A DNA stretch of 64,000 bases, taken from the sequence record OQ708376.1; one strand, written 5' to 3'. The stretch comes from Escherichia phage vB_EcoM_CRJP21. Shown here piece after piece: positions 3,061-42,753 of the stretch (positions are counted from its first letter, which is position 1; every line of letters begins with the position of its first letter). The position numbers were made by a program, and so were the translations under genes. The notes under the pieces are model-generated. The model was not told the origin of the DNA, searched no databases, and saw nothing but the letters and a program-made list of their open reading frames with translations.

Positions 3061-3324
3061 ATGAATATTAAAGATAGATTACAATTACTGTACACACTTG
3101 AACAGGCTGCTTATGATCTTGTTCGAAAAATCTCAGATGAACTACCTAAAGGAACTAAAGTTCGTGTACGTGAGATGAATTATTTTTCTGGAGTAATTGA
3201 AGAACAAGTACTAACAGTGAATAAAGTAACATACTATGAATCTGAGTTGTCTATTCAGTGTGAATCTGATGATGGATTAATATCATATTATGGAACTGAT
3301 GTAGATATAGAGGTAATAAAATGA
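3061..3324 (+). CDS. hypothetical small protein
   Basis: ATG at 3061 after GGTGGA; track ORF 3016-3324. Confidence 0.45.
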   Translation: MNIKDRLQLLYTLEQAAYDLVRKISDELPKGTKVRVREMNYFSGVIEEQVLTVNKVTYYESELSIQCESDDGLISYYGTDVDIEVIK

Positions 3325-4463
3325 CCCTTTTGCAAATATATGAAGATTTAATGCACTTATGTAATACAAACGATGCATTCTTTTATGTGGATCATAAAAG
3401 TCCTGCTGGTGGCACGTATCGTGTATTCAGTTATCGTCTAGCATCATACACTGATTTCATGCAACCAAATGCGTTGGAAACCCGTGGCTCTATGTGGGAA
3501 ATTGATGAAGAAGGTGACATGATACGTTGTGCAGCACGTACAATGAAAAAGTTCTTCAATGCTTACGAGAATCCTGCTACAATGTTCCCTGCTAACACCA
3601 CATGCGATGACATTGCGGTAGTGATGCCTAAGTTGGATGGCTCGATCATCAGTACTTATCGTGATAATGATGGTGAGATTCGTTGTAAATCACATACTGC
3701 ATTGTATTCTGACCATGCGATTAACAGTACTCGACTTATTAACGAGAACCAGAATTTGTATCAGTACATCGACGAAGCGGAACGTTTAGGTTACACAGTT
3801 AATATGGAGTATACAAGCCCAGAGTACCGAATTGTATTACCATATCAGGTAGAACAACTGTTTGTACTGAACGTTCGTCATCGTGTGAGTGGTGAGTTGC
3901 TATGTGGTAAAGCACTACGTGATAAGTTTCCATGTCTTGCACAGTACAGTACTAATATGACTGGAAAAGATATTCATCACACTTTTCCGGTACGAAATAC
4001 CTTCCGTGAAAGCGTGGAGGAAGTTCATAAAATGCTTGATATTGAGGGTTTTGTGTGCATCCTAAATAATGGGACAATGTGTAAAATAAAGACTGACTGG
4101 TACAGTTCATTACATCTTACAAAAGATAGTATTATTATTGATTCTCATTTATATGAAGCAGTATTAAATGGTTCAAGTGATGATTTAAAACAATTGTTCA
4201 GTACTGATGAATATGCTATGCAAAAGATATTAAGAATGGAACAATTGGTATTTTCGTGCTATAATGCATTACAAGATGAAGTAGAAAGCTTCGTCAAGGA
4301 ACACAAGCACTTGGAGCGAAAGGAATTCGCAATGAAGGTTCAGGAGTGTTTAACTAATGAACTGAATCGTCAGGGCTTGGCCTTTGCAATGTATAACAAT
4401 AAGAAAGTTGATTACAAAGAGACTCTTATAAAATACATGAAAATTGTACTAAAGGATTTTTAG
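3321..4463 (+). CDS. rnlA: RNA ligase 1 (T4 Rnl1-like)
   Basis: 380 aa; N-terminal region (FYVDHKSPAGGTYRVFSYRLASYTDF) matches T4 Rnl1 pattern; ligase motif I lysine in MPKLDGS. Confidence 0.85.
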   Translation: MTLLQIYEDLMHLCNTNDAFFYVDHKSPAGGTYRVFSYRLASYTDFMQPNALETRGSMWEIDEEGDMIRCAARTMKKFFNAYENPATMFPANTTCDDIAVVMPKLDGSIISTYRDNDGEIRCKSHTALYSDHAINSTRLINENQNLYQYIDEAERLGYTVNMEYTSPEYRIVLPYQVEQLFVLNVRHRVSGELLCGKALRDKFPCLAQYSTNMTGKDIHHTFPVRNTFRESVEEVHKMLDIEGFVCILNNGTMCKIKTDWYSSLHLTKDSIIIDSHLYEAVLNGSSDDLKQLFSTDEYAMQKILRMEQLVFSCYNALQDEVESFVKEHKHLERKEFAMKVQECLTNELNRQGLAFAMYNNKKVDYKETLIKYMKIVLKDF

Positions 4464-5559: not shown

Positions 5560-6492
5560 ATGCCAACTATTACACTAACAGTTGGATTACCTGGGTGTGG
5601 TAAAACCACATGGGCAGTTCAAGAAATTAAAAATGCCAAATCCAAGACTATCAACATCAACCGTGATGATATTCGTGAATCTATGGCTGGGTCACATGAT
5701 GCTTACAAATTCAACGATGCTAATGAGCAGTACGTAACTAATTTACAGTTCAGTGCAGCAAATTCAGCAGCAGAGAATGGTTGGAACATCATCATATCCG
5801 ATACAAACCTTAAACAACATTTCCGTAATCTCTGGAAAGTATGGGCTAAAGATAATGGTTATGATTACAAAGAAAAGAACTTCTATGATGATTTTGTACC
5901 TAATGAAGACCGTGGTGCAGATGTTCATGAATTCTTTAAGATTAAAGAGTTCGTAAAACTTTGTAAGAAATATAACCTCCAGCGTGAGCGTTCAGTACAA
6001 GATGATATCATTGACACAATGGCAGATACGTACTATTATAGTAAGGCATTGCACATTGGTTACTATGGTAATTCACGAGAAGCTGCTGTTATCGTTGATA
6101 TTGACGGTACTCTTGCTCATAAATGGGGTCGTAATCCTTACGATGAAAGTACTGTTCTTCAGGATACACCTGATGAAGAAGTTATTTTGTCTATTATCGC
6201 TGAAGCAGTTTTTCATAAACGCAAGATTATCGTCATGAGTGGGCGTACTGAAGGGTGTCGTGCTGATACCGAACAGTGGCTTAAGAATTGGGGTGTTCCT
6301 TACGATGCATTGTTTATGCGAGATATCGATGATAAACGTCCTGATGATGTTGTAAAATTCGACCTGTACATGAAAAATGTGGTTGATCATTACGATGTTA
6401 AAAAGGTATATGATGACCGAGCACAAGTCGTATTCATGTGGCGTAAGCTACTTGGTTTGAAAGTTTTTCAAGTTGCAGAAGGAAATTTCTAA
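5560..6492 (+). CDS. pseT: polynucleotide 5'-kinase / 3'-phosphatase (T4 Pnk-like)
   Basis: P-loop GLPGCGKTT, NINRDDIR, and HAD-type phosphatase motif VDIDGTL; colinear with T4 Pnk over full length. Confidence 0.85.
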   Translation: MPTITLTVGLPGCGKTTWAVQEIKNAKSKTININRDDIRESMAGSHDAYKFNDANEQYVTNLQFSAANSAAENGWNIIISDTNLKQHFRNLWKVWAKDNGYDYKEKNFYDDFVPNEDRGADVHEFFKIKEFVKLCKKYNLQRERSVQDDIIDTMADTYYYSKALHIGYYGNSREAAVIVDIDGTLAHKWGRNPYDESTVLQDTPDEEVILSIIAEAVFHKRKIIVMSGRTEGCRADTEQWLKNWGVPYDALFMRDIDDKRPDDVVKFDLYMKNVVDHYDVKKVYDDRAQVVFMWRKLLGLKVFQVAEGNF

Positions 6493-9923: not shown

Positions 9924-10667
9924 ATGAAACATTTCTTAGAAGTAACCGTACCTGATGATAAAGATTTATACATTGTAGGTGATTTGCATGGTAATGGTAA
10001 ACTATGGGATGCTACAGTGAAAGAATTTGGTATTACACACAATGATTATGTTTTCAGTGTAGGTGATATTATCGACCGTGGAGAACAAAATTCAAAGCTC
10101 CTTTTTGAATTTTTGTTCGGAGAAAATCGTTACATGATTGCGGGTAATCATGAGATGATGTGCGTTGATTCGGAAACACTTCGAGATTGGTATCATTGTT
10201 GGATAAGTAATGGTGGTGATAAATTCCTTGATGAAGTTGGAGGAACAGGTATTCAATTCTTTCGTCAGTACTTGAAAGATCTCCCTATGATTATCCAAAT
10301 CAATCACCGAGGATTGAAGATTGGGTTAGTTCATGCTGGAGTTCCGTTGGAATATACAACATGGGAACGATTTGTTAATGGGACAAAATCACTTAGTGCT
10401 GATATAATTGATAAGTGCTTGTGGGATAGAAAAACATTCGATTATTGTAGAACTAATAATACATATTATGCACCTAAGTTAGATGGAGTGCATTGTGTCT
10501 TTAGTGGACATACAGCAGTTACAGACCCACTCATTTACGGTAATCGCATTTGGATTGATAGTCAGTTCTTGACGGGTGACTTAACTCTCGCTACTCCACA
10601 AAGTGGTGGAATGAGATACTTACGTAAAGAAAAAGATGAGTACTCATTCAATCGTTTCAAAAGGTAA
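9924..10667 (+). CDS. Ser/Thr protein phosphatase-family metallophosphatase
   Basis: GDLHGN, GDIIDRGEQ, GNHEMM motifs (PPP/ApaH-like); ATG 9924. Confidence 0.7.
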   Translation: MKHFLEVTVPDDKDLYIVGDLHGNGKLWDATVKEFGITHNDYVFSVGDIIDRGEQNSKLLFEFLFGENRYMIAGNHEMMCVDSETLRDWYHCWISNGGDKFLDEVGGTGIQFFRQYLKDLPMIIQINHRGLKIGLVHAGVPLEYTTWERFVNGTKSLSADIIDKCLWDRKTFDYCRTNNTYYAPKLDGVHCVFSGHTAVTDPLIYGNRIWIDSQFLTGDLTLATPQSGGMRYLRKEKDEYSFNRFKR

Positions 10668-12800: not shown

Positions 12801-14219
12801 ATGAGCATTTTAGCAATTCTTGAAAGCATTAAAAATACTAGCAGTACACTAGGCAAAAAAGCTATTCTTGAACAAAATAAAGATAATGTAACTTTACAAA
12901 AAGTACTGAAATATACTCTAGACCCTTCTATCGTTAGTGGCTATAAGAAGCTCCCTGCCGCTGATGACGTATATCAACATATGACGTTAGATGAAGCAAT
13001 TGATAAGCTAGAATGCATTTACAAGCGTGATGTGACAGGAAATGCGGGGCGTGATTTCATTGCTTCAGTACTGGGTTCTGTATCTGAAGATGATCAGGAA
13101 GTTCTCCGTAAAATGCTTACTAAAAACCTTGATTGTGGTATTCAAGAAAAGAACTGCAATGATGTATTTGGTAAAGGCTTTATTAAAGACGAACCATATA
13201 TGCGTTGTTCTTTGATTGACAAAAAGACTGCAAAGAACATCAACTTCAAAGATTATGGTTACGCTATATCAGAAGTGAAAATGGATGGTCAGTACTTGAA
13301 CCACGTTGTTATTAATGGTTCATTAACTTCTACATCCCGTAATGGTAAACTATACGACTTCCTGGGTTGTCGTGATGGTGAGATGGCAGGTCTTGCTCAC
13401 ATCATCCAAAGTAAAGATGAACGTTTTAGTAGTGGTGTGGTCTTTATGGGGGAAGGTGTAGTACTGGACAATGATGGGGAAACCATTCTCCCACGCACTA
13501 CTGGCAACGGTATAATTCAGAAAGCTGGTAAAGATAGCATCAGTCAGAATGAAGCAATGCGTACTGTATTCGTTCTATGGGATGTTGTTCCATATGATGC
13601 ATTTTGTGAAGGTGTATGGGATGTAAAACGTAAAGAACGTCGCGAGATCTTAGTAGATGCAATTAACGAACTCAATAGTGATTTTGTTCGTATGGTTGGA
13701 TTCCGTAAAGTTCTAAACATCAAAGAAGCATTTGAGTACAATAGTGAACTAATGAACGAAGGTGAAGAGGGTTCAGTACTGAAATGTGAAGATGGTATCT
13801 GGAAATCTCACACTTCTCCGAAGCAGTTGAAAATGAAATTGAAAATGCAACTAGACTTGCGTATTGTTGGTTTCAATGAAGGTGAAGGTAAACGTAAAGG
13901 AAGCCTAGGTTCTTTACAACTGGAAAGTGCTTGTGGTTCATTGAAAGTTAATGTGGGTACTGGTATCAAAGAGAAAGATGCTGAATGGACATTTAAAACC
14001 ATTTGGGAAAGAATGCAAGAACTTATTGGTAAAGTGGTTACAGTTGAGTGTAATGACATTGTATTCGAGAAGCGTACTGGTGAGCCATCACTGTTCTTAC
14101 CAGTGTTTATTGAATTTAGATTTGACAAAAACACTTGTGACGACTATACTCGTATTTTAGAAATTCGTGATAGTGCTGTTGAGGTGTTCTCAAACAGTAT
14201 CATTGAATCACTTGGCTAA
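12801..14219 (+). CDS. 30: ATP-dependent DNA ligase (T4 gp30-like)
   Basis: N-terminus ILAILESIKNTSSTLGKKAILEQNKDN parallels T4 ligase; adenylation motif KMDGQ. Confidence 0.85.
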   Translation: MSILAILESIKNTSSTLGKKAILEQNKDNVTLQKVLKYTLDPSIVSGYKKLPAADDVYQHMTLDEAIDKLECIYKRDVTGNAGRDFIASVLGSVSEDDQEVLRKMLTKNLDCGIQEKNCNDVFGKGFIKDEPYMRCSLIDKKTAKNINFKDYGYAISEVKMDGQYLNHVVINGSLTSTSRNGKLYDFLGCRDGEMAGLAHIIQSKDERFSSGVVFMGEGVVLDNDGETILPRTTGNGIIQKAGKDSISQNEAMRTVFVLWDVVPYDAFCEGVWDVKRKERREILVDAINELNSDFVRMVGFRKVLNIKEAFEYNSELMNEGEEGSVLKCEDGIWKSHTSPKQLKMKLKMQLDLRIVGFNEGEGKRKGSLGSLQLESACGSLKVNVGTGIKEKDAEWTFKTIWERMQELIGKVVTVECNDIVFEKRTGEPSLFLPVFIEFRFDKNTCDDYTRILEIRDSAVEVFSNSIIESLG

Positions 14220-15834: not shown

Positions 15835-15862
15835 TGGACATTTTAAATCTTAGTGATATAAT
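15835..15862 (+). promoter_or_regulatory. sigma70-like promoter, TGGACA-N13-TGATATAAT
   Basis: TGGACA 15835-15840, TGATATAAT 15854-15862, 35 nt upstream of ClpP-like gene. Confidence 0.5.
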
Positions 15863-15896
15863 ACTCACAACAACGAAATAATAGAGGAAATTAATA

Positions 15897-16592
15897 ATGG
15901 TTGAACAATTCATGTTTGGTGGTTATGCTAATGGCGAAGTACGTAACATTTCTATTCCTTACGTAGTTGAGAAAGTTAATGGTTCAGAACGTACATATGA
16001 TCTAGCATCTCGTATGATGCAAGACCGTATCATTTTCCTTGATACTGATTTCAATGATCAAATGGCACATATCATCAAACAACAATTGGTATGGTTAGAC
16101 TCACAAGGTGATTCCCCTATTACATTCTACATTAGTTCACCGGGTGGTTCAGTACACGCAGGTTTGGGTATTGCAGATGTTGCTAAGTCTTGTATTTCCC
16201 CAATTCGCACTGTAGTTATGGGTTATGCAGCATCAATGGGTTGCTATACACAATCTGTTATTGGGACTAAAGGTTTCCGTTTAGGTGGTAAACGCTCATA
16301 CTTCATGTGTCACCAAGTAAGTTCTGGTACACAAGGTCTAATTACAGACCAGAAGATTTCCCTACAACATTCTGATGCACTGAATACATTGTTGACCAAA
16401 GAAATTGCAGAAGCTGTAGGTGTATCACATGAACAATTACTAAAAGATGCTGACCGCGATTTGTGGTTAAATGCAGAAGAAGCACTTGAATATGGTGAAC
16501 ATGGTTTCATTGATGGTATTATTCTTGGACCACGTAACGAAGAAGGTAAGTACTTAGTTAAGCGTCGCGGCGGTGTAGAAGAGTGGGTGTAA
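15897..16592 (+). CDS. ClpP-like serine peptidase
   Basis: ISSPGGSV, catalytic Ser in GYAASMGCY and His in MCHQ aligned to ClpP. Confidence 0.75.
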   Translation: MVEQFMFGGYANGEVRNISIPYVVEKVNGSERTYDLASRMMQDRIIFLDTDFNDQMAHIIKQQLVWLDSQGDSPITFYISSPGGSVHAGLGIADVAKSCISPIRTVVMGYAASMGCYTQSVIGTKGFRLGGKRSYFMCHQVSSGTQGLITDQKISLQHSDALNTLLTKEIAEAVGVSHEQLLKDADRDLWLNAEEALEYGEHGFIDGIILGPRNEEGKYLVKRRGGVEEWV

Positions 16593-16640: not shown

Positions 16641-16931
16641 ATGAAAGTACTAGTACGTAATAATACGGAAGTAGCAAATGTATTAGAAGATTCCGATTTT
16701 ATTAATGTTGCGTTCGATCAAATTAGTGCAGTAGCACTTGAATTAAAAAATGTAGATGAATCTGAGCGTGTGCTGAATGGTTTTGCAATTGTACTTGAAT
16801 TAATGAAGGAAGTACTAATTAAAAAGAACATTAATCCAGTTGATGCGGTTCAACATGCAGAAGCTGTGCGTAAAGAACACGGTACATTCTCTGACAAAAA
16901 ATACATTCAAACTGATGAGGTAAAAGAATAA
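16641..16931 (+). CDS. hypothetical protein
   Basis: ATG 16641 after GGAG. Confidence 0.45.
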   Translation: MKVLVRNNTEVANVLEDSDFINVAFDQISAVALELKNVDESERVLNGFAIVLELMKEVLIKKNINPVDAVQHAEAVRKEHGTFSDKKYIQTDEVKE

Positions 16932-16932
16932 T

Positions 16933-17379
16933 ATGTCCAATGCACAATATAAAGATGGTTATGACGCATACAAAGCAAAAGTAGTTCTAAGTGCTGAACA
17001 GCTAAAAATGCAGCATCCATTATATCGTCAGGGCTATCGTGCAGCACAAGCAGAAGCAATGAAGAAAAATAATGTAACTTTCCCTACTACACTATATGAT
17101 ATTCCAAAACGTCCACACATTTTTAAAGCTGAATGGACTGATATTATGGCAGCGACAAAGCGTCCACGCTTTGCTAAATTACACACCGATGAAGGTCGCT
17201 GGTTGCTAATGGGGATTATGAAAGCAGTTGAGAATCAATCTCATAAGATTGTTCGTTATAAAGATGTTGTTGCTATGGTTGATAAAGCATTTGACCTTGT
17301 ACTTCAATATGGTTATGATGAAGGTGTTCTAACTGTCGCTGATTGTGAAAAATATCAGTACACCCCATATCAAAAATAA
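16933..17379 (+). CDS. hypothetical protein
   Basis: 148-aa ORF. Confidence 0.5.
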   Translation: MSNAQYKDGYDAYKAKVVLSAEQLKMQHPLYRQGYRAAQAEAMKKNNVTFPTTLYDIPKRPHIFKAEWTDIMAATKRPRFAKLHTDEGRWLLMGIMKAVENQSHKIVRYKDVVAMVDKAFDLVLQYGYDEGVLTVADCEKYQYTPYQK

Positions 17380-17388
17380 TATTGTGAA

Positions 17389-17420
17389 AAGGAATCCTAT
17401 CATGGGATTCCTATTTTTAT
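17389..17420 (+). terminator. intrinsic terminator
   Basis: GGAATCCTA / TGGGATTCC stem then TTTTT. Confidence 0.6.
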
Positions 17421-19268: not shown

Positions 19269-19646
19269 TTAACCAGGGAGGTTACAATAATACAAATCCC
19301 AAGGGTGATATTTCATCGCACCAGTACTCAATTTAATTTTATGAAACTGGAATGATTCGGCAAATGCACTATCGTCAATCTTAATACAAAAAGTGTTTTT
19401 GGCTAGAGTTGGTGCAATTTCCAATGCTGTTTTAGATGCATCTAATCTAATTTTATCTTTATCATAACTAGTGATAGTTACAAAACGATAAACATTAAAA
19501 TCAGTATCAATGAGATCGTAAACACAACTAGAACGTTGATTAAAGATGTTCAAGTTATATTTCAATTCACCGTTTATATTAGCTGCGGTTACACAAAACC
19601 CGCCGATATTGAATGGTAGTTTACCTTGTGCTGCGATAGCTTTCAT
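19269..19646 (-). CDS. hypothetical protein (only reverse-strand gene)
   Basis: 125-aa ORF; AAGGAAA RBS on - strand before ATG at 19646. Confidence 0.5.
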   Translation of the reverse strand: MKAIAAQGKLPFNIGGFCVTAANINGELKYNLNIFNQRSSCVYDLIDTDFNVYRFVTITSYDKDKIRLDASKTALEIAPTLAKNTFCIKIDDSAFAESFQFHKIKLSTGAMKYHPWDLYYCNLPG

Positions 19647-19807: not shown

Positions 19808-19836
19808 TTGACTTAAGTGTTTAAGTACTATATTAT
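19808..19836 (+). promoter_or_regulatory. sigma70 promoter TTGACT-17-TATTAT
   Basis: TTGACT 19808-19813, TATTAT 19831-19836, ~35 nt before gene 19872. Confidence 0.45.
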
Positions 19837-19871
19837 TTATATCTTCCTAAACAAAATTGAGGACTTGTTAT

Positions 19872-20480
19872 ATGAAAAGACTATGGCTTGAAGTGATACA
19901 AGCAGCGATGTTTCTATTGTTAATAAATTTTCCAGCCAGTGCTGGTATTGAAAGTAAAAATGTGATAAAGTATAATCCTGAAACCCGAAATGTATATTTC
20001 ATATCAGATATTACAGATGGGTCACTCAAGAGAATGATAGAGTTGTATGATAAAGAACACTATGATACCATCACAATTACATCTCCTGGTGGTGATTTTG
20101 ATGCAGGTATTCGAATGGCAAACTTTGTTAGAGACAATGGGATAAATTTAATTGTTTCTAGGTATTGCAATTCAGCATGTACTGTGGTATTCTTTAGTGT
20201 ATCTCCCGAAAAGCGATATATGACAAATCGCTCAGTACTGGGTCTTCATAACATTTCGATTAAAAGTAATGTTACTGATGGTGATAATTCATTTGTGTCT
20301 GTAAGACAGCTATCAACTTTTACCGAAGAAATGGCAACAAAGGTAGGTTTCCTTTTTTCACTATATGCAGCAAATGGAATCCCACCAGAAGTTCTATTTA
20401 GAGTTAGTCGTTCTCGTGGTGAAGATGTTGTAATATTAACAAAACCAGAACTGGTTTTTTACGGTTCAGTCAAACAATAA
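19872..20480 (+). CDS. secreted ClpP-fold serine peptidase-like protein
   Basis: signal peptide MKRLWLEVIQAAMFLLLINFPASA; ITSPGGDFDAG aligned to ClpP SPGG region. Confidence 0.5.
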   Translation: MKRLWLEVIQAAMFLLLINFPASAGIESKNVIKYNPETRNVYFISDITDGSLKRMIELYDKEHYDTITITSPGGDFDAGIRMANFVRDNGINLIVSRYCNSACTVVFFSVSPEKRYMTNRSVLGLHNISIKSNVTDGDNSFVSVRQLSTFTEEMATKVGFLFSLYAANGIPPEVLFRVSRSRGEDVVILTKPELVFYGSVKQ

Positions 20481-21623: not shown

Positions 21624-21632
21624 GGATTGAAT

Positions 21633-22385
21633 ATGATATCAGAAAAATTTATAAGCAATGAAGGTAAAAAGCGATTACTGATTATATCAGGTGCAGGACT
21701 TTCTGTTGAAAGTGGTATGGAACCTTTTCGATTTGATGATGGTTTGTGGGATACATTTAAAATTAATGATGTATGTAACATTGCTAGTTTAACTACGAAA
21801 TATCACGTTGTTCATTCCTTCTATAATACATTACGTGTAAAATTGGGTCAATGCAAACCCAATGCAATGCATTATTTTATAAAATCGTTAGAAGATCAAT
21901 ATGGTGATTGCTTCCTTCATATGACTTCTAACATGGACGATCTTTATACTCGTATTGGTGGTCATGAGCTTAAACTTCATGGAAACTTGTGCGAAGTTAT
22001 TGAAAATTATAGTATCAATTCCGATGATTATAATGTTATTAACTGCGGATACGAACCATACATACCAAAACATGATGTTTTTGCCAAACCAAATGTAGTA
22101 ATGATTGGAGAATATCATCGTTATGTTGATGGTATTCGCTTACCAATTTACGAAGAACGAAATAATGTGTTGAAATCTCTTAATGAAAATGATACAGTTA
22201 TTGTAATTGGTAGTAGCGATACAGTACTGGTATGGTCGAGATTAGCAGCAGCATTACCATGTTATAGTGTTAATGTTAACATTCGTAAAAATGATAATGA
22301 TTTTTTGTTTAATGAAAAAGTTATCAAGCCAGCAACCAAAGCAATACCGCATCTAGAGACTATAATTAAGGAACGTATGAAATGA
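21633..22385 (+). CDS. Sir2-family (sirtuin/CobB-like) NAD-dependent enzyme
   Basis: GAGLSVESGMEPFR, HMTSNMDDL, catalytic LHGNL, VVMIGE, VIGSSDTV; lacks canonical CxxC zinc tetrad. Confidence 0.75.
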   Translation: MISEKFISNEGKKRLLIISGAGLSVESGMEPFRFDDGLWDTFKINDVCNIASLTTKYHVVHSFYNTLRVKLGQCKPNAMHYFIKSLEDQYGDCFLHMTSNMDDLYTRIGGHELKLHGNLCEVIENYSINSDDYNVINCGYEPYIPKHDVFAKPNVVMIGEYHRYVDGIRLPIYEERNNVLKSLNENDTVIVIGSSDTVLVWSRLAAALPCYSVNVNIRKNDNDFLFNEKVIKPATKAIPHLETIIKERMK

Positions 22386-22933
22386 GTGTTAAAGAAGTTC
22401 CCTTTGGTGAATATGGCACACGTGCAAATTTTGTATTTTGTTATTTCTTTGCAAGAAAATGCAACCCTTACAAAAACTATGAGTTGAATGATATACCAGA
22501 AGTAAATTTAGTATTACTGCAATTACGATGGGATGGTCTTCTTGGTGGATGTGGTGGAACCGTAGAAAGTACTGATATCTCACTAGAAGATGCGTTGCGT
22601 CGTGAAGTTCAAGAAGAAATGGATTACAATATTTTTGTTTCCCATCTTCGACCACTCAAAACTTTTGAAATTTACCCAGGTGCAAACAGTCACAGTTTTA
22701 GCTATGAAGTAACCTATGACGAGTTGAAACACATTAGAGATGGATACACTAATGCTAAACATGCAAGTGCAGAAGTTGCTGGTGTAAATTTATGTCATAT
22801 TTCGCGTTATTCTAAGGGACAAAATCGAGAAGCGGGATATAATAATCTTATGACACAGAACTTCATCGGTACAGCAAAACAAGAATTGGAGTATCTGGTT
22901 CAAAAAGAAAACTTACTAATTAGTTATCTATAG
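22382..22933 (+). CDS. Nudix-like hydrolase (divergent Nudix box)
   Basis: GGTVESTDISLEDALRREVQEEMDY approximates GX5EX7REUXEEXGU with a 3-residue insertion. Confidence 0.4.
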   Translation: MSVKEVPFGEYGTRANFVFCYFFARKCNPYKNYELNDIPEVNLVLLQLRWDGLLGGCGGTVESTDISLEDALRREVQEEMDYNIFVSHLRPLKTFEIYPGANSHSFSYEVTYDELKHIRDGYTNAKHASAEVAGVNLCHISRYSKGQNREAGYNNLMTQNFIGTAKQELEYLVQKENLLISYL

Positions 22934-22942
22934 GAGTTTAAC

Positions 22943-23263
22943 ATGTCTTACTCAATGTTTTTGGATGATATTCGTGATGCAAATCTATATTATCCAAACC
23001 AAGATATGGTGGTATGTCGTGACTTTAAAAGTGCATGTGAATATGTTATTGAAAATGGAATTCCAGCATTTGTATCATTCGACCATGACTTGGGTGATGT
23101 GAGCGAAGACGAAAAGACTGGATATTCTTTTGCTAAGTTTCTTATTGATTATATGTTTGATAATAATATTAAAGAACCGTTTGAGTACTTTGTTCACAGT
23201 AGTAATCCTGTTGGTAAAATTAATATTGAAACATACTTAAACAATGGATTTAACTCATTATGA
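22943..23263 (+). CDS. hypothetical protein
   Basis: 106-aa ORF. Confidence 0.45.
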   Translation: MSYSMFLDDIRDANLYYPNQDMVVCRDFKSACEYVIENGIPAFVSFDHDLGDVSEDEKTGYSFAKFLIDYMFDNNIKEPFEYFVHSSNPVGKINIETYLNNGFNSL

Positions 23264-23562
23264 TTCAAACACACATCAAAAGTCTTATTTGTACTGTTCT
23301 GTTAGGTGCAGGAGTTCTTTGGTTCGGACAGTATCACGAGAACACTAAGCGTACCAACATTCACTACAATACCGCAGAAGTTGTTAGTTTAGGACAATGT
23401 AGCGAGTCCAAATGTTCATTTATGTATAAAACCCAAAGTGGTGAAGTACGTAATGGACTATCAAGAGAACCAGTTTCAATTGGTCAACTTGTTTACCAGG
23501 AGTGCTGGGAAGAAAAGGTTCGAGGTTCACGTTGCTATGTTGAATACGAACCAAATATGTAA
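23260..23562 (+). CDS. membrane-anchored hypothetical protein
   Basis: N-terminal TM LICTVLLGAGVLWFGQY. Confidence 0.45.
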   Translation: MIQTHIKSLICTVLLGAGVLWFGQYHENTKRTNIHYNTAEVVSLGQCSESKCSFMYKTQSGEVRNGLSREPVSIGQLVYQECWEEKVRGSRCYVEYEPNM

Positions 23563-23622
23563 TAATCCGAGTCAATAACATTAGTCGAGTACAAGGATGT
23601 ACTCATAACTCAAGGATGTTTT

Positions 23623-25062
23623 ATGAAAAAATATACAATTGACACAAACGTACTACTATCTGACCCTAATGCATCTATTGCTTTTGATGGTGCTGCAATC
23701 ATTCTACCATTTACAGTACTGGAAGAATTGGATTCAATTAAGAGTCGTAATGTAGATGTTTCACGCGATGCTCGTGTTGCTATTCGTAACATTGAAGCAA
23801 TTATTGCAGATGCATCACATGATGAGATTAGTAGTACTGGTGTTAATATTGCTGATGTTCATACCAATATGAATCCTGATAGCAAATTGTTTGTTATTAC
23901 AAACGAAGAAGCTGAAGCACTAATTCGTACTAAAGGTTCAGAAGAGAAAGTTCAAACCCTTCTCAAAAGCACAGTACCTGATGATAAAATCATTCTGGTA
24001 GCTTTAGCAACAGAATCAGTACTGGTAACTCGTGATATCAACATGCGTATCAAAGCACTAAGTTATGGTGTCGAGGTACAAGATTATCGCCATGATATTG
24101 TTATTGGTGATAGTGATTTGATTCACATTGGTCAACACCATTTGGAAATTAATTTTTGGGAAGTATATAGCAACTTATCCAATACTAATATTCAATCCGA
24201 ACAAGTTGGTCGTCGTTTGTATCATTACATTTCTAAAAGCTTGATTGAACATTTGCTTCCACAAAATCTATGCATCGGTGATTATCTATATGATGATGCA
24301 GACGTATTATTTGTGTACGAAGGTCAATCAGCAATTGAGGAAGATGATGGAACACTAACACCAGAAGATATTTTGGTATTCCAAGATATTGGACAATCAG
24401 TAGCTTTACGTGCTAAAGTATGGGATATTAAAGCAAAGAATATCCAACAAGCACTCGCCATCAACAGTATTCTCGATCCTGATGTACATCTAACAGTACT
24501 GCTAGGTTCTGCTGGTACTGGTAAAACACTAATTACGATTGCTACTGCATTAGAATTAGTACTGGAAAAACGTAAATACGACCGAATCATCTTCTCTAAA
24601 ACTCAAGACTCACAGTTTGAAGATATTGGTTTCTTGCCAGGTTCAGAAGCAGAAAAAGTGATTCCATTCTGTGGAGCCGCAATTGACGCGTTAGAGTTTC
24701 TTCATAAAGATGATGCTAACCCTCAAGGTAGTATTGAAGAGATTATGAAACGTAATGTTATTCAATTTAAAGCACTAAACTTTGTACGTGGACGTTCATT
24801 CACCAACACTATTCTAGTAGTTGATGAATTCCAAAACATTACACCTGCACAAGCTAAAACAATCTTGACACGAGCAGGATTAAACTGTAAAGTAGTAATT
24901 ATGGGTAACTTGAGTCAGATTGACAGTAAGTTTATTAGTCCTGTTAACAGTGGTTTGACATATGTAACTGAGAAGTTTAAAGATTGGGCAGGTTGTCGTG
25001 TCATCGAACTAGAAGGTGTTGTTCGTTCACCACTTGCAGAATTTGCTGAAGAAAATATGTAA
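23623..25062 (+). CDS. phoH: PIN-domain + PhoH-like ATPase
   Basis: N-terminal PIN (IDTNVLL), Walker A GSAGTGKTL, Walker B VVDEFQN. Confidence 0.8.
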   Translation: MKKYTIDTNVLLSDPNASIAFDGAAIILPFTVLEELDSIKSRNVDVSRDARVAIRNIEAIIADASHDEISSTGVNIADVHTNMNPDSKLFVITNEEAEALIRTKGSEEKVQTLLKSTVPDDKIILVALATESVLVTRDINMRIKALSYGVEVQDYRHDIVIGDSDLIHIGQHHLEINFWEVYSNLSNTNIQSEQVGRRLYHYISKSLIEHLLPQNLCIGDYLYDDADVLFVYEGQSAIEEDDGTLTPEDILVFQDIGQSVALRAKVWDIKAKNIQQALAINSILDPDVHLTVLLGSAGTGKTLITIATALELVLEKRKYDRIIFSKTQDSQFEDIGFLPGSEAEKVIPFCGAAIDALEFLHKDDANPQGSIEEIMKRNVIQFKALNFVRGRSFTNTILVVDEFQNITPAQAKTILTRAGLNCKVVIMGNLSQIDSKFISPVNSGLTYVTEKFKDWAGCRVIELEGVVRSPLAEFAEENM

Positions 25063-25070
25063 TATTGTAT

Positions 25071-25099
25071 GGGACATTATGTCCCATACATGATATAAT
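25071..25099 (+). promoter_or_regulatory. promoter GGGACA-N14-TGATATAAT with dyad symmetry over -35
   Basis: -35 lies in palindrome TGGGACAT-T-ATGTCCCA (25070-25086). Confidence 0.5.
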
Positions 25100-25130
25100 G
25101 TTGTTATCATAATACAGAAGGAGATATAAA

Positions 25131-25319
25131 ATGGCTAAACAACCTAAGAAAAAAGAACCAGTAGCAAAAGTTAAGAAAGAGAAAGTTATTCAATCTAAAG
25201 AACAACGTATGTACGAACAACGTAAGAGTGAAACCCTATCCGGTCTTCAAGCTCTACGCAAACAAGGTGTACTAACTCGTGCACAGTACCGTGAACTAGT
25301 AGCTCAGAAAGGTTTTTGA
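25131..25319 (+). CDS. small basic protein
   Basis: 62 aa lysine-rich. Confidence 0.45.
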   Translation: MAKQPKKKEPVAKVKKEKVIQSKEQRMYEQRKSETLSGLQALRKQGVLTRAQYRELVAQKGF

Positions 25320-25423
25320 TTCATTTGAAGACATATTGTGGAGTTCTTAATAAATACTTTTATAAGAATAATAATACTTTTTATTAAATTAAAAAGAACT
25401 CCATGTGTTATTTCAGTTTTTCG

Positions 25424-25450
25424 TCCCTGTCTTTTGGCAGGGATTTTTTA
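25424..25450 (+). terminator. intrinsic terminator
   Basis: CCCTG-tcttttgg-CAGGG then TTTTTT; preceded by a long AT-rich hairpin 25340-25403. Confidence 0.55.
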
Positions 25451-25545
25451 TATCTATATCTTGACAAAAGGAACAAATCATGAGAACATGTATTAAAGGA
25501 AGAATGACTTTCCATTAGGTTATTTTAACTTAAAGGAGATTTCAT

Positions 25546-26103
25546 ATGTTTTTTGACCAAACATTTACGTTGTATCACGATTCTGGTAAAGTTGAGATTA
25601 TTGATAATCTGTTAGAGTACATTGCGGAACATGACGGTATAGACCGTTTCCACAGTAAGATGAAATTCGATTTAGCTGAATTCAACAAAAAGAATCGTGA
25701 AACATTTTGGAAGAACCGTTTCTATTACGAAATGTTTCCAGAAAAGTTTGTGGGTTATTATCTTTGTACTGAAAAAGGATTACTTGTATCTCCTGATTTA
25801 CTTATGGGTGAATACATGATACTCTATAATGAGTACTGGGAACATAAACGTAAAGCTCGTGATACGGAATGGCGACATAAGCGTTCGTATATGTACAAAC
25901 ATAACCACTCCCGATACAAGCGTCCTAAGACACAACAAGAGCGTCGTATGGCTTGTGCAGTACTGAAGGATGAGGGGGAACCTGATATACGTGGAAGACG
26001 TAAGATGCGTTCATTACCATCGTATTGGGACGATATCAGAACAAGACATAGTACTGGCTGGAAATACAGTACTAAACGTAAACATCAATACAAAGGGAGC
26101 TAA
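25546..26103 (+). CDS. hypothetical protein with basic C-terminus
   Basis: 185-aa ORF. Confidence 0.5.
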   Translation: MFFDQTFTLYHDSGKVEIIDNLLEYIAEHDGIDRFHSKMKFDLAEFNKKNRETFWKNRFYYEMFPEKFVGYYLCTEKGLLVSPDLLMGEYMILYNEYWEHKRKARDTEWRHKRSYMYKHNHSRYKRPKTQQERRMACAVLKDEGEPDIRGRRKMRSLPSYWDDIRTRHSTGWKYSTKRKHQYKGS

Positions 26104-26130
26104 TGCTCCCTAATTTTATAGGTGAACTTT

Positions 26131-26460
26131 ATGAACAAAATTGACGTTACTGTAGTGATTGGTTATATTGAAATTGAACCGTGTGGCATTGATACCTTTA
26201 TTGACACTCTTAATAAGTATCGTGCTGAATATAACGGTCACATTAGTCTTTCACCAGACAGTGGGTACGGCGGTTTTCATGGATACAATGTAATTTGGAC
26301 CAGAGAAGAAACTGACGAAGAATATAATACACGAATTGAAGCTGAATCTAAAAGATGTGAAGAAATTGAACGTCAAGAAATGAAACACTTAATGAACAAG
26401 AAATCATTAAGTACCGAAGAGAAATCTAAACTGCTAAAATACATCAAGGATTACATGTAA
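26131..26460 (+). CDS. hypothetical protein
   Basis: ATG 26131 after AGGTGA. Confidence 0.45.
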   Translation: MNKIDVTVVIGYIEIEPCGIDTFIDTLNKYRAEYNGHISLSPDSGYGGFHGYNVIWTREETDEEYNTRIEAESKRCEEIERQEMKHLMNKKSLSTEEKSKLLKYIKDYM

Positions 26461-27110
26461 TGAAAAATGTAACTCAAGAAAAGATTCTGTACCTTGCAAA
26501 GTACAATGGTGGTTTCAATATCATTAGCCGTGAGTACAGTGGTAATTTGGCTAAGTTGATTGACAGTTTGTTAGAATTTGATTTCATTAAATGGGAAACT
26601 AATGAACTTTGGTACGAATATGCTGGTCAGAAATGGGAAAGTGATTATGATAATGCAATACATTCATACACTATCACCAAAGCAGGTGAAGTTCGATTAG
26701 CCATTATGCGTTGTGCATATACTTACAAAAATCATAAAGGTGAAGAAAAACATATTCGCAGAAATGAAGAGCTATTACTTCTCATGGAAGCAGCAAAAGT
26801 TACAATGCATGATTTGTTCCACCACCCACGTTGGTATGAAAATCTAACAAAAGCAGAGTACAAAGCTTTACGTTACATTGATGAACAAAACAACAACCCA
26901 GTTGAAGTTGATGATGTTAGTGATGATGAACTAAGCCTCAAAAATGTATTTGAAAGTACCAGTACTGAAAGTATTACAGACATTTCTGTACAGATGGCAC
27001 TAAAAGCAATGGAACTTTTCAAGACACAATATGAAGGACACAGTGCTGAAGAAGTAGAGCGTGAGTTCATTACACGCGTACAGATTGCATTGTTCCAATC
27101 GAAAAAGTAG
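26460..27110 (+). CDS. hypothetical protein
   Basis: 216-aa ORF. Confidence 0.5.
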   Translation: MKNVTQEKILYLAKYNGGFNIISREYSGNLAKLIDSLLEFDFIKWETNELWYEYAGQKWESDYDNAIHSYTITKAGEVRLAIMRCAYTYKNHKGEEKHIRRNEELLLLMEAAKVTMHDLFHHPRWYENLTKAEYKALRYIDEQNNNPVEVDDVSDDELSLKNVFESTSTESITDISVQMALKAMELFKTQYEGHSAEEVEREFITRVQIALFQSKK

Positions 27111-27116
27111 GATGAT

Positions 27117-27296
27117 ATGAAATTTTTACTTGTACTAATCGCAGTTCTTATGGTATTATCTTGTTCAGTTAGTAATGGTTCATACATTTACGTATCAGTA
27201 TTTGAAGAAGCTCCCGACAACTGTGTATTAACTCACACTGGAATTGTGTTAGTTAATGGTAAACCATCAATCGAGTACTTATGTATAGGTGATTAA
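27117..27296 (+). CDS. small lipoprotein
   Basis: 59 aa (below track cutoff); signal + lipobox VLSC; RBS AGGA. Confidence 0.4.
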   Translation: MKFLLVLIAVLMVLSCSVSNGSYIYVSVFEEAPDNCVLTHTGIVLVNGKPSIEYLCIGD

Positions 27297-27299
27297 ATT

Positions 27300-27530
27300 A
27301 TGAAATTATTATATATTTTTATTATTTCTTCTATTGTATTTCTGAGTGGATGTGCTCCTAAAGTTGATGAGATGGATGCTGAAATCATCCGTCAAGGTTT
27401 AACAAAACTAAATCACCAAGGAACACTATACGCATGTCATACTATGCGTCATGGGCAAGATCTTAATCTCATGTGCAGGAAGATTGTGAATCGCAAACGT
27501 CTTAATACTGTTCCGAAGGATGCACAATGA
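27300..27530 (+). CDS. small lipoprotein
   Basis: signal peptide and lipobox LSGC. Confidence 0.5.
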   Translation: MKLLYIFIISSIVFLSGCAPKVDEMDAEIIRQGLTKLNHQGTLYACHTMRHGQDLNLMCRKIVNRKRLNTVPKDAQ

Positions 27531-27697
27531 AAGAAGTAATTGACTACAAATGTAAAAATTGTGGCAAAGATAAGGGTAAGCATTCAGTACAAGGGATGGC
27601 TTGCCCGAATCCAGGTCGTGGTAATTTCAGAGGGTTTAGTACTGAAAAGTCTTACGAACCGGATCATACCAAACCTGTAATGGGTTATAAATTATGA
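27527..27697 (+). CDS. small zinc-ribbon protein
   Basis: 56 aa (below track cutoff); CKNCG ... ACPNPG; ATGA overlaps both neighbours. Confidence 0.4.
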   Translation: MKEVIDYKCKNCGKDKGKHSVQGMACPNPGRGNFRGFSTEKSYEPDHTKPVMGYKL

Positions 27698-28053
27698 GTG
27701 ATTATGTAGCATTTCTTCATCGCTTTGGAGAAGCTAAAGAAAAACATATTATCCGTATGCCATTATATGGTGAAAAAGACTGGTACAAAAGTACTATCAG
27801 TGTAGGTGCATTTCGTGACCGTGAAGCTGGATTCTTTCTGGGTAAGAAACATGAACGAGAGGTACTTTGCTCACTGTGGCGTTTGGATGAATGGGATAGT
27901 GAGAACGTAAGAACTGCTGAATCAATGCTGGCTATTGTTGGTATTGCGAACTATCAGCATCCATATGACCTATTACCTACATTTGAACATGCTTCTTTGT
28001 TTGACTTTTACAAAGCAGTAGGGTATGATTATAAAAAGAAACGTTACATTTAA
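27694..28053 (+). CDS. hypothetical protein
   Basis: 119-aa ORF. Confidence 0.5.
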   Translation: MSDYVAFLHRFGEAKEKHIIRMPLYGEKDWYKSTISVGAFRDREAGFFLGKKHEREVLCSLWRLDEWDSENVRTAESMLAIVGIANYQHPYDLLPTFEHASLFDFYKAVGYDYKKKRYI

Positions 28054-33368: not shown

Positions 33369-33376
33369 TATAAATA
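33369..33376 (+). promoter_or_regulatory. T4-type late promoter motif TATAAATA
   Basis: exact TATAAATA ~35 nt upstream of ATG 33411. Confidence 0.45.
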
Positions 33377-36118: not shown

Positions 36119-36706
36119 ATGGCATATAAAATAAGAGCAGACCTTAAGGCAATGCAACAAGTTACAGTTCAGGGTAAAAGTACTGGTCTTGGTGTATTAG
36201 GTAATAATATGACTTATTACCCAACAAATTCAAATGGGGAATGTACATTCCCCTCTATTACCAAAGATGAAGTTAACTTTATTGTCAATGGATTACCACT
36301 TACACAATACGGAGAATTGTATGATGACGCTAGTCTAAATATTACTTCATCAGGCTATAGTCTTACATTTAATAGACAGATACCATCATTTATTGGTGGT
36401 TATCTTTATAAATTTCCAGCAGTTTCTATTTTTGCTTCAACTGTTTCATCTGGAACACAAACACAATACGTATATGCAACGTTAGTTCTCGGTGAACCAA
36501 TTTATAAAATATCACCAACACAAATACAAGAATCTGAAATTATAATGTTTATTGGAACACTGACCGTTGGTACAAGTGGTATTACAAATATAAACATTAA
36601 TAAAGTATCCAGATTTAGTACATATAGACCTAGTGTTACACAAAAAGGTTCTTCATTCCCAGTCAGTACTGGAAAACCATCAGAAACTGGTACAATTGGT
36701 TGGTAA
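36119..36706 (+). CDS. short paralog of fibre-like family
   Basis: 195 aa with the shared C-terminal module (RFSTYRPSVTQKGSSFPVSTGKPSETGTIGW). Confidence 0.5.
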   Translation: MAYKIRADLKAMQQVTVQGKSTGLGVLGNNMTYYPTNSNGECTFPSITKDEVNFIVNGLPLTQYGELYDDASLNITSSGYSLTFNRQIPSFIGGYLYKFPAVSIFASTVSSGTQTQYVYATLVLGEPIYKISPTQIQESEIIMFIGTLTVGTSGITNININKVSRFSTYRPSVTQKGSSFPVSTGKPSETGTIGW

Positions 36707-36722
36707 ATTAAGGAAAAGAAAG

Positions 36723-41122: not shown

Positions 41123-41524
41123 ATGACTACAGTTGATGATATCTATAGCACTATACGCAATATGAGTACAGATAGAAAAGTATTTGGCGATAAAGAAAAA
41201 TCTAAGTGTTATGGTATTGATTCTTTTGATATAATTTCTTATGAGTACAATACAAGTGGAAATAGTTCACTGAATATCGTCTGTCCTCGTGATCCAGAAA
41301 ATAATTTTATGTATGTTGAAATTAATAATGATGGAATGTTTTTTACAAAAGTTTTAAAAGGTGGAATTAATTACGAACCTATTGAATGTATGAATGAAGA
41401 AACTTTCTTTCAAGAAGATACAATTATCAATTTAGGTTTTAGTTTTGATGATTATAAAACATTAGAACATGACTTTAATCGTTATTATAATGGTTTCTTA
41501 AAGGAGTTAACAATTTATCTATGA
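41123..41524 (+). CDS. hypothetical protein
   Basis: 133-aa ORF. Confidence 0.5.
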   Translation: MTTVDDIYSTIRNMSTDRKVFGDKEKSKCYGIDSFDIISYEYNTSGNSSLNIVCPRDPENNFMYVEINNDGMFFTKVLKGGINYEPIECMNEETFFQEDTIINLGFSFDDYKTLEHDFNRYYNGFLKELTIYL

Positions 41525-42753
41525 ATAACCAATATATTGAACAAACAATAGTGAAACACTTGGCTGGGTCACAAGCCTACGGAACCAGTACACCTGAAAG
41601 TGATACTGATTATCGTGGTATTTTTCTTGCTAATAAAGAATTTATTCTTACACCCTTCTATAAGGTCAAAGAGGTAGCTGATAAAAGCGAAGAAGATACT
41701 AAATTCTATGAGTTGAATCAGTATTTAAAATTATACACTGAAGCTAACCCTAATATTCTTGAATCACTTTGGGTTGAACCTGAACACATTGTTGAAAGTA
41801 CTGAAATTTATGACTATCTTCGTTCATTTAACCAAAAACTTCTTAGTTCCAAGATTGCATTTTCATACACTGGATATGCATATAATCAGATTAAGCGTAT
41901 GACAAATCATCACGGTTGGATGGATAAAGAGCGTATTGCTGAAAAACGATTAAATGAGATTTTAGAAGAACACCCAGTCGATGAGGTTCTTGCGTGGATG
42001 TATGATTCATTTCCACAATATCTTGTTGAACGTTTAGATACATCGAACTTACATCCATTTAATGCTAAAAAGATTGATTTTGAAAAATATATGCGTGATA
42101 CGTCATTGCAGTTAGTTTCGAAAAATCCATTAAAGCAATATCATTTTGTAAGATTAGTGCATAACTACACTACTGATAAAATTCTAGATCGTGATTTCAA
42201 TTTATTGAATTTTAATAATGGCTATGAACTAATTCATTACGGAGAAAACATTTTTGCGATTATTAAAAATCCGAATGAAAGTACTATCAATGGTGATGGT
42301 TCATTGCGTTATTTTTCTAAAGAGCGTAGTACTGAAGAGTTGAAAACCAAACCAGAACTGATTGTCAAATTTAACGAAAAAGAATATCAGGAAAATAGTG
42401 AGAATAGGAAAAGTTATCATAAATGGAAAGAAAATCGTAATGCCAAACGTGCTATTTTAGAATCACAGCACGGATACGATTGTAAACATGCTATGCACAC
42501 AATCCGACTTTTGAATAGTGCAGAAGAAGCATTACAAAGTGGTATTATTCAAGTTAAACGTCCTGATGCACAAATGCTGATGGATATTCGCAATGGTAAG
42601 TGGAAATATGAAGAAGTATTAGAATACTTTGATGATAAAGTAAAATATATTCGTGATGTTCTATATAAGAAATCTGTACTTCCTAAAAAACCAAACATCA
42701 AATTAGCATCAAAAATTATCATTGATATTAGAGAAATGCAATGGTATAAGTAA
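41521..42753 (+). CDS. Pol-beta superfamily nucleotidyltransferase
   Basis: N-terminal GSQAYGTSTPESDTDYRGIF fits GS...SDxD nucleotidyltransferase signature. Confidence 0.55.
   Translation: MNNQYIEQTIVKHLAGSQAYGTSTPESDTDYRGIFLANKEFILTPFYKVKEVADKSEEDTKFYELNQYLKLYTEANPNILESLWVEPEHIVESTEIYDYLRSFNQKLLSSKIAFSYTGYAYNQIKRMTNHHGWMDKERIAEKRLNEILEEHPVDEVLAWMYDSFPQYLVERLDTSNLHPFNAKKIDFEKYMRDTSLQLVSKNPLKQYHFVRLVHNYTTDKILDRDFNLLNFNNGYELIHYGENIFAIIKNPNESTINGDGSLRYFSKERSTEELKTKPELIVKFNEKEYQENSENRKSYHKWKENRNAKRAILESQHGYDCKHAMHTIRLLNSAEEALQSGIIQVKRPDAQMLMDIRNGKWKYEEVLEYFDDKVKYIRDVLYKKSVLPKKPNIKLASKIIIDIREMQWYK

Follow-up and report, generated by a model that had tools for sequence, protein, structure and literature searches.

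The ClpP annotation of the gene considered here dates from the sequencing of phages RaK2 and PBECO4. It has been reported that the giant phage Atu_ph07 carries seven Clp-family genes, with both ClpX and ClpA encoded, and that Rak2-like phages share a conserved ClpA (Attai et al. 2018, PMC6102473). In the comparative analysis of Iyer et al. (2021, PMC7824862), ClpP was described as the most prominent peptidase of jumbo phages, likely directed against the host and not at virion maturation, and phage ClpS, ClpA, and ClpX were noted as well. A literature search found no experimental study of a phage-encoded ClpP and no paper on an Asteriusvirus transcriptome; the paper on phage Sharanji does not discuss ClpP, and the main text of the RNA-seq study of PA5oct is silent on Clp. 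The gene and the general hypothesis are already known, and because both are present in GenBank and in two comparative papers, little that is new is added here. What is added is an explicit test of ClpP against the head-protease label, together with a predicted promoter class common to ClpP and ClpA, a predicted sigma-70 promoter of consensus sequence that precedes the ClpS operon, a docking tripeptide conserved in phage ClpA, and ClpP pocket substitutions specific to the clade. The preferred reading, to which we give a probability of about 0.6, is that ClpP would be the peptidase core of an early, phage-encoded ClpAP(S) machine acting on non-structural targets, with no prohead role.

Source Phage and Identity of the Gene

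The window, which is the whole 64-kb stretch of DNA that was analysed, is assigned by sequence identity to a PBECO4/121Q-type giant coliphage of the genus Asteriusvirus. The region shows 99.5–99.9% identity with Asteriusvirus jumbo phages such as SD-2_S15, PBECO4, G17, slurp01, and Sharanji, and 96.7% with 121Q. At least 14 phages (16 records), PBECO4, 121Q, G17, and SD-2_S15 among them, encode exactly this ClpP protein (100% identity), and its counterpart in phAPEC6, gp353c, is 99.1% identical to the ClpP of the window. The genes for ClpA and ClpS lie outside the window and were assigned via genomes that are 99–100% identical over the compared parts.

The gene for the ClpP-family serine peptidase was called as an ORF at 15897–16592 on the + strand; it encodes 231 amino acids from an ATG start, and a ribosome-binding site, GAGGA, can be read from the sequence at 15884..15888 (+), 8 nt 5′ of the ATG. 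The Pfam profile PF00574 (CLP_protease) matches the ORF with 141.3 bits (gathering score 20.2) and an E value of 4.2e-41 over profile positions 2–179 of 182, and the ORF aligns over its full length with about 60 ClpP structures solved from bacteria and mitochondria, with a best E value of 1.4e-36. The NCBIfam models of cellular ClpP give 151.6 bits (TIGR00493) and 155.2 bits (NF001368), which is below their equivalog or subfamily cut-offs of 308.6 and 249, respectively. The phage protein is a divergent ClpP, for which automatic naming as the housekeeping enzyme is not expected. PF25145, which is listed in some ClpP homologues, is an overlapping match to NfeD, a protein of the ClpP fold, and no additional domain. 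The dN/dS of ClpP is 0.03 in comparison with phage Turkey3, lower than that of both downstream genes, and indicates that purifying selection acts very strongly on the entire protein. The phage gene encodes a genuine ClpP protease core.

Active Site, Predicted Structure, and Docking Pocket

In pairwise alignment, the phage protein is 37% identical to E. coli ClpP, whose sequence was checked against PDB 3mt6. The first-pass annotation had called the gene a ClpP-like serine peptidase and had aligned its catalytic Ser (GYAASMG) and His (MCHQ) with ClpP, and both statements hold: the PF00574 match runs nearly end to end, the predicted fold is that of ClpP, and S113 and H139 correspond to E. coli S97 and H122. 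The third residue of the triad, D188, aligns with E. coli D171. The codons of the triad lie on the + strand at 16233–16235 (Ser113, within GYAASMG), 16311–16313 (His139, within MCHQ), and 16458–16460 (Asp188). The oxyanion residues G84 and M114 align with E. coli G68 and M98, and S113, H139, D188, G84, and M114 are all invariant in 46 homologues that span 43–96% identity. The R187–D188 pair is likewise conserved in the alignment with E. coli ClpP, and an arrangement in two stacked heptameric rings would be consistent with this pair and with the handle region.

The AlphaFold2 model of the phage protein has a pLDDT of 91.6. In a Foldseek search of the PDB, all of the top 50 matches to the model were ClpP (50/50), with target-normalised TM-scores of 0.91–0.96, and for the top hits, all bacterial ClpP, the target-normalised TM-scores were 0.92–0.96 and the rmsd to the model was 1.0–2.0 Å. 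The α/β fold of ClpP with its handle helix is confidently predicted by the model. The phage protein also has a variable N-terminal leader of 19 amino acids and a C-terminal extension of 22 amino acids, and β-strands are confidently predicted by AlphaFold2 in the latter.

The N-terminal axial loop of ClpP gates the pore and contacts the ATPase. Its motif, IPYVVE..GER.YD, is found at residues 20–35 of the phage protein, where IPYVVEKVNGSERTYD aligns to E. coli VPMVIEQTSRGERSFD; within it, conservation among the 46 homologues is 90% or more at P21, V23, E25, E31, R32, and Y34, and D35 is invariant. The pocket of E. coli ClpP that receives the IGF/IGL loops of the unfoldases is formed by what we take to be Y60, Y62, F82, I90, M92, F112, L114, and L189. 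By this list, Y62, I90, M92, and L189 are retained in phage ClpP as Y78, V106, M108, and I209, and the other four positions are changed (Y60 to T, F82 to S, F112 to L, and L114 to G). Throughout the Rak2-like clade, E. coli Y60 is replaced by T, F82 by S or N, and L114 by G. These clade-wide changes are compatible with a co-adapted, perhaps host-orthogonal, interface, and they could equally mean weaker docking.

The pocket bears on two other explanations of the gene. In one of them, ClpP uses host ClpX and/or ClpA, replacing or supplementing host ClpP so that host Clp proteolysis is retargeted, and the phage ClpA is an independent chaperone or disaggregase for very large virion proteins. The axial loop and the equivalents of pocket residues Y62, M92, I90, and L189, conserved with E. 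coli ClpP, speak for it, but the clade-wide replacement of F82 and L114 argues, if anything, against a simple plug-in of host IGF/IGL loops; with the unfoldase evidence given below, this explanation is considered unlikely. In the other, ClpP does not chiefly degrade substrates but disrupts the host Clp system, either by joining host ClpP rings in mixed or dead-end complexes or through sequestration of unfoldases, for example to spare phage proteins. Phages do inhibit host proteases, as T4 PinA inhibits Lon, and the altered pocket residues together with the N- and C-terminal extensions set the phage protein apart from host ClpP. However, neither an invariant triad and oxyanion site nor such strong purifying selection is needed for a mere decoy, and the same genomes encode a ClpS-domain protein as well as a cognate ClpA. 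Disruption of the host system is the least probable of the explanations considered here.

Promoter, Transcription Unit, and Neighboring Genes

The 64-nt intergenic gap 5′ of ClpP contains a sigma-70-type promoter with an extended −10 element, TGGACA-16 nt-TGaTATAAT, at 15835..15862 on the + strand, which has 11 of 12 hexamer matches plus the TG. Generic sigma-70-like matches occur in this AT-rich region at chance level, with 47 found against 47.9 expected from shuffles, and since the generic scan did not rise above the shuffles, a stricter extended −10 motif was relied on. This motif, GACA-N12-14-TGNTATAAT, has six copies in the 64-kb window, all on the coding strand (+), where 0.17 would be expected, and most of the copies fall just past the end of an ORF. 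In phage Turkey3, the hexamers of the ClpP promoter are conserved and the spacer has diverged. The ClpP promoter is therefore predicted to belong to a recurrent promoter class of the phage, in agreement with the earlier suggestion that the gene sits behind a promoter of its own. The promoter type suggests that ClpP is expressed early.

Two small ORFs follow ClpP on the + strand and are predicted to be co-transcribed with it. The first, at 16641..16931 (96 aa, phrog_16159), lies directly 3′ of ClpP in three genera and is 41–53% identical to RaK2_490 and CBB_105, which occupy the equal position; the second, at 16933..17379 (148 aa, phrog_16190), is a conserved 3′ neighbor that is 54–58% identical to RaK2_491 and CBB_106. 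In the Turkey3 annotation, the 96-aa ORF is named as an NTP pyrophosphohydrolase. Neither ORF has a Pfam match even at an E value of 1, and the idea that the two conserved ORFs are Clp adaptors was dropped. Behind them, an intrinsic-terminator-like hairpin with a 10-bp stem, followed by the T-run ATTTTTATT, is located at 17390..17412 (+); the annotation of phage G17 has a terminator here too, and the hairpin probably ends the ClpP transcription unit.

The genes around this unit are also informative. Upstream of ClpP lie genes for RNA ligase, polynucleotide kinase, DNA ligase, and a metallophosphoesterase, and downstream lie genes for dCMP deaminase, Sir2/NUDIX, PhoH, and an anaerobic ribonucleotide reductase. 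These neighbors, among them the ligases, the kinase, the metallophosphoesterase, and the deaminase, agree with the first-pass description of the surroundings as early-type. The order ligase–ClpP–dCMP deaminase, together with the two small ORFs after ClpP, is conserved in RaK2 and CBB.

Head Module, Virion Proteomics, and the "Head Maturation Protease" Label

No portal, capsid, or S77 protease gene was found within the 64-kb window. The first pass had placed ClpP outside any head-morphogenesis context and had proposed a search of the complete genome for a canonical head module around the gene. In the complete genomes of PBECO4, 121Q, G17, and SD-2_S15, all with an identical ClpP, the canonical T4-type head module lies 113–125 kb away, and the placement stands. 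In phAPEC6, the module is located at 141–147 kb and ClpP at 264 kb. This T4-type head module of phAPEC6 comprises a gp23-like major capsid protein (PF07068, E 1e-89), a gp20-like portal (PF07230, E 5e-112), a scaffold protein, and, between the portal and capsid genes, a gp21-like Peptidase_S77, gp227c (PF03420, E 1e-20), which is homologous to T4 gp21 with 29% identity. No match to PF03420 was found in the ClpP ORF by Pfam search, and the NCBIfam model for ClpP-related head maturation proteases, NF045542 (Clp_rel_HeadMat), gives 51.3 bits on ClpP against a cut-off of 120.

The promoters of the two regions also differ. The T4 late motif TATAAATA precedes the capsid and scaffold genes of phAPEC6 by about 45–50 nt and four other genes in its structural region by 16–42 nt, and there is no TATAAATA near ClpP; the count of this motif is not itself enriched, and only its placement upstream of late genes is informative. 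The proposal that ClpP is the prohead protease was rejected because of where the gene lies, the class of its promoter, its scores on the family models, and the existence of the separate S77 protease. Prohead maturation is predicted to fall to that gp21-like enzyme and not to ClpP.

Several RefSeq and pharokka-style records nevertheless name ClpP "head maturation protease". The name arises because the best PHROG of ClpP is phrog_94, which carries this description; in phages E9.1, JP4, and ELP-22, the true S77 protease bears the same label too. The RefSeq label on ClpP is probably wrong, which is of consequence for pipelines that annotate genes by PHROG 94.

A narrower version of a structural role would make ClpP a second morphogenetic protease, acting on head, inner-body, or other virion proteins beside the gp21-like enzyme. 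The phrog_94 assignment speaks for it, and the inner body and numerous packaged proteins of these phages might call for processing. Virion proteomics, which the first-pass annotation had put forward as a check, can be consulted in published data. The virion proteome of phAPEC6 comprises 62 proteins, including the capsid protein, the scaffold, the S77 protease, and the portal, and ClpP is absent from it; in RaK2, only the S77 protease and the ssDNA-binding protein were flagged as unexpected in virions, and ClpP was not named. These two data sets favor a non-virion protein. The third goes the other way, since CBB_104, a 70%-identical ClpP orthologue, was detected in purified virions of CBB, but by a single peptide with 4.5% coverage, and one peptide of such low coverage is the pattern that an abundant cytoplasmic contaminant would give. 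The distance to a head module that has its own S77 protease, the lack of a late promoter at ClpP, the 51 bits on the head-protease model in comparison with about 155 bits on models of cellular ClpP, and the retention of the unfoldase-facing N-terminal loop all speak against a second morphogenetic protease, which is judged to be quite improbable.

Phage-Encoded ClpA and ClpS

The phAPEC6 protein gp246c is a 762-aa ClpA that is matched by TIGR02639 with 755 bits in one full-length stretch, whereas models of ClpB match it in two pieces, and its score against E. coli ClpA (1ksf) is 604 bits. By tblastn, phAPEC6 ClpA is 99.9% identical to its counterpart in SD-2_S15 and 100% identical to that in 121Q, both of which carry the identical ClpP, and orthologues with 41–75% identity are present in RaK2, K64-1, CBB, BF, Erwinia phages, and PA5oct-like phages. 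Both Walker A motifs, the KYRG and GYVG pore-loop motifs, and the Clp_N repeat are found in the phage ClpA. The ClpB-type disaggregases, which do not bind ClpP, are not known to carry a docking loop. At the site of the E. coli IGL docking tripeptide, the phage protein has IGM (Asteriusvirus), IGV (RaK2), LGM (CBB), or IGF (PAC2), so a hydrophobic-Gly-hydrophobic tripeptide is kept in four of the four lineages examined, which argues against a ClpA that acts apart from ClpP.

The position of the ClpA gene suggests something else. It lies on the opposite strand, inside a late tail/baseplate cluster; in three genera it is flanked by structural genes of the virion, and in PA5oct-like phages it adjoins DnaJ; from these neighbors, ClpA could be an assembly chaperone that is independent of ClpP. 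It has been proposed that phage ClpA or ClpX may aid virion assembly (Iyer et al. 2021, PMC7824862). Both points, and the absence of ClpX from Asteriusviruses, lend something to the use of host unfoldases by ClpP. The promoter of ClpA speaks against it. In phAPEC6, the ClpA gene is preceded by GACA-N13-TGATATAAT, of the same class as the ClpP promoter, and a promoter of the GACA-N13-TGATATAAT class also precedes the late-sigma-factor gene. The ClpA genes of RaK2 and CBB have extended −10 promoters as well, which the strict pattern missed only because their spacer is 18 nt. ClpA is thus predicted to carry an early-type and not a late promoter.

A ClpS-domain protein of 177–181 amino acids is present in 71 of 71 Rak2-like records. 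The Pfam ClpS profile clearly passes in GAP32 and is marginal in phAPEC6, with 24.7 bits against a threshold of 23. With E. coli ClpS as the tblastn query, the Asteriusvirus protein was not reached, and the GAP32 ClpS-domain protein served as the stepping stone to it. By eye, the N-degron-binding residues are not all conserved in the Asteriusvirus domain, and the protein is best described as a ClpS-domain protein that may be an adaptor. Its gene lies downstream of an IF-3-like gene, which is itself preceded by a perfect TTGACA-N17-TATAAT.

ClpX was not found in Asteriusvirus. The "Escherichia" ClpX matches that were inspected were set aside, as they consisted of a 3-kb contig identical to host ClpX and of matches in small phages to only the N-terminal ~50 residues. 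An unfoldase is also encoded by other huge phages that bear ClpP, which speaks for a partner of phage origin: Lak phages encode ClpX, PA5oct encodes ClpX, ClpA, and ClpS, and Atu_ph07 encodes ClpX and ClpA. The ClpP, ClpA, and ClpS genes are never adjacent and lie from tens of kilobases to more than 100 kb apart. Their co-occurrence inside one viral clade reflects shared ancestry and is not independent evidence of joint function.

The first-pass annotation had suggested that ClpP may work with host Clp ATPases. The involvement of a Clp ATPase remains part of the picture, and the choice of partner has been refined: because these phages encode a ClpA with a docking loop and a ClpS-domain protein, a phage partner is at least as likely as a host one.

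Proposed Role and Significance

The preferred reading, a phage-encoded ClpAP(S) machine, can be set out as follows. ClpP would be transcribed from a host-sigma-70-type promoter together with genes of nucleotide metabolism and replication and would be active as a self-compartmentalising serine peptidase. It would most likely serve the phage-encoded ClpA unfoldase as its proteolytic chamber, and the phage ClpS-domain protein may assist the ClpA–ClpP pair as an adaptor. The resulting ClpAP(S) machine would carry out ATP-dependent degradation of cytoplasmic, non-virion substrates during infection; candidates are proteins of the host, early phage proteins that are no longer needed, and misfolded products. 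The analysis establishes the family of the protein, its intact active site, the predicted ClpP fold, the purifying selection, the setting of the gene and its promoter, and the presence of ClpA and ClpS-domain genes in the same genomes. Here, we infer the docking of ClpP to phage ClpA, the early expression, and the identity of the substrates.

A wider proposal, which is put forward only tentatively, is that the Rak2-like phages (Asteriusvirus, Alcyoneusvirus, Mimasvirus, and relatives, and distantly PA5oct) possess a self-contained early ClpA–ClpP–ClpS system with a co-diverged interface that is orthogonal to that of the host. If this is true, the system would be a private degradation route, of use in host takeover, in the removal of defence or early proteins, or in N-degron-type targeting. 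The pocket changes in ClpP and the variant ClpA loops suggest a protease–unfoldase pair whose orthogonality is testable.

More generally, a complete viral AAA+ protease would be a clean system in which to ask why a lytic phage needs regulated proteolysis. It might do so to shut off the host, to turn over its own early proteins, to control the quality of giant virion proteins, or to counter host defences. The Clp system of these phages is well defined and easy to test, and it will not surprise a specialist.

Comparison with Known Systems

Phage ClpP is homologous over its full length to the cellular ClpP of MEROPS family S14 (E. coli P0A6G7, S. aureus, and T. thermophilus), with 37–40% identity. 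The Ser-His-Asp triad, the oxyanion Gly and Met, the Arg-Asp pair, the axial loop, and, according to the model, the fold are common to both. Unlike the cellular enzyme, the phage protein is encoded by a virulent jumbo phage, reaches about half of the NCBIfam equivalog cut-offs, and has the 19-aa leader, the 22-aa C-terminal extension, and T, S/N, and G in the pocket.

The ClpP-related head maturation proteases (NF045542; PHROG 94, 133, 1684, and 2976) have the ClpP fold and the Ser/His chemistry in common with the phage protein. In contrast to them, the ClpP gene described here stands apart from the portal and capsid genes and lacks a late promoter, and its genome has a separate S77 protease. 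T4 gp21 (PF03420) and phage ClpP are both phage serine peptidases in the genomes of T4-related myoviruses, but their families are unrelated; the counterpart of T4 gp21 in these phages is phAPEC6 gp227c or its equivalent, which is found in virions.

Related Clp gene sets are found in other huge phages such as RaK2, GAP32, CBB, and PA5oct/Wroclawvirus, where ClpP is orthologous; its identity is 66–75% across the remaining Rak2-like genera and 33% for PA5oct-like phages. The sets of partners differ among the huge phages: Asteriusvirus has ClpA and a ClpS-domain protein without ClpX, Lak phages carry ClpX, and the two unfoldases occur together in PA5oct-like phages and Atu_ph07.

Annotation of ClpP and its divergent relatives

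As seen in public records, the ClpP-family serine peptidase is labelled 'head maturation protease' in NC_027364 (PBECO4), NC_025447 (121Q), PP886230 (E9.1), PQ330092 (JP4), and OR699282 (ELP-22). The gp21-like S77 protease, the T4-type prohead protease of the head module, bears the same label in E9.1, JP4, and ELP-22, so that each of these three genomes has two 'head maturation protease' genes; on ClpP, the label seems to have arisen as an artefact from PHROG 94.

ClpP is accompanied in the window by another protein with a ClpP fold, highly divergent and 202 aa long (19872–20480, +; phrog_26024, 'protease'), which was matched to the ClpP profile by hhalign with 89% probability, and whose SPGG, Ser in CNSAC, and His in LHN correspond in that alignment to the oxyanion, Ser, and His positions of ClpP, respectively. 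Its N-terminus is hydrophobic and signal-like, and the product may represent a serine protease that is secreted or anchored in a membrane. Meanwhile, the ClpP homologues P0068–P0076 form a separate metagenomic group with 45–53% identity, in which the triad is kept and most positions of the docking pocket, which takes the IGF/IGL loop of the unfoldase, are charged or polar (R, K, Q, E); the group might represent ClpR-like variants or variants that work independently of an unfoldase.

Early-type promoters and non-structural genes

The promoter motif GACA-N12-14-TGATATAAT is found six times in the window, compared with 0.17 expected, at 354–379, 10382–10408, 15837–15862, 25073–25099, 49194–49219, and 59660–59685; all six copies are on the coding (+) strand, mostly directly 3' of an ORF end, and the motif probably defines the host-RNA-polymerase (early) promoter class of the phage. 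The window also holds a dense set of plus-strand genes for nucleic-acid repair and tRNA maintenance (3321–4463, 5560–6492, 12801–14219, 41521–42753, and 58537–59649), comprising RNA ligase A, polynucleotide kinase/phosphatase, ATP-dependent DNA ligase, nucleotidyltransferase, and tRNA nucleotidyltransferase, near which lie Sir2-like, NUDIX, and WGR-domain genes (21627–28000). The gene for a PhoH-like ATPase of 479 aa (23623–25062, +) sits in a non-structural region, although its orthologue, phAPEC6 gp341c, was detected in purified virions with 31% coverage.

Phage ClpA, ClpS, and late-type genes

The surroundings of phage ClpA were viewed at L003 (phAPEC6 gp246c; 36660–38948, −), L007, L008, and L009. 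In three genera, the gene runs opposite to its neighbours, with tail or baseplate genes on one side and a structural protein of ~380 kDa on the other, yet it has an early-type promoter; in PA5oct-like phages, it is adjoined by a DnaJ homologue. The ClpS-domain gene is located directly 3' of a phage homologue of translation initiation factor IF-3 in Asteriusvirus (phAPEC6 gp165c–gp164c; L011, 972–2034) and in GAP32 (GAP32_313–314; L010), a conserved pairing, and a perfect consensus sigma-70 promoter precedes the pair.

Two tandem paralogous proteins of ~900 aa each, both phrog_3573 (E < 1e-260), are encoded at 33411–36107 and 36633–39452 (+), and late expression of the first is suggested because TATAAATA, the T4-type late promoter motif, is present upstream at 33369–33376. 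The same motif occurs at 19834–19841 (−), upstream of and on the same strand as the gene at 19269–19646 (−), the sole sizeable minus-strand gene within the surrounding stretch of early-type genes. Its phAPEC6 orthologue, gp347, is a virion protein of 14 kDa with 75% mass spectrometry coverage. The gene thus has the appearance of a late structural gene set within an early region, and phage ClpA, which is placed inside the tail cluster, is its mirror image.
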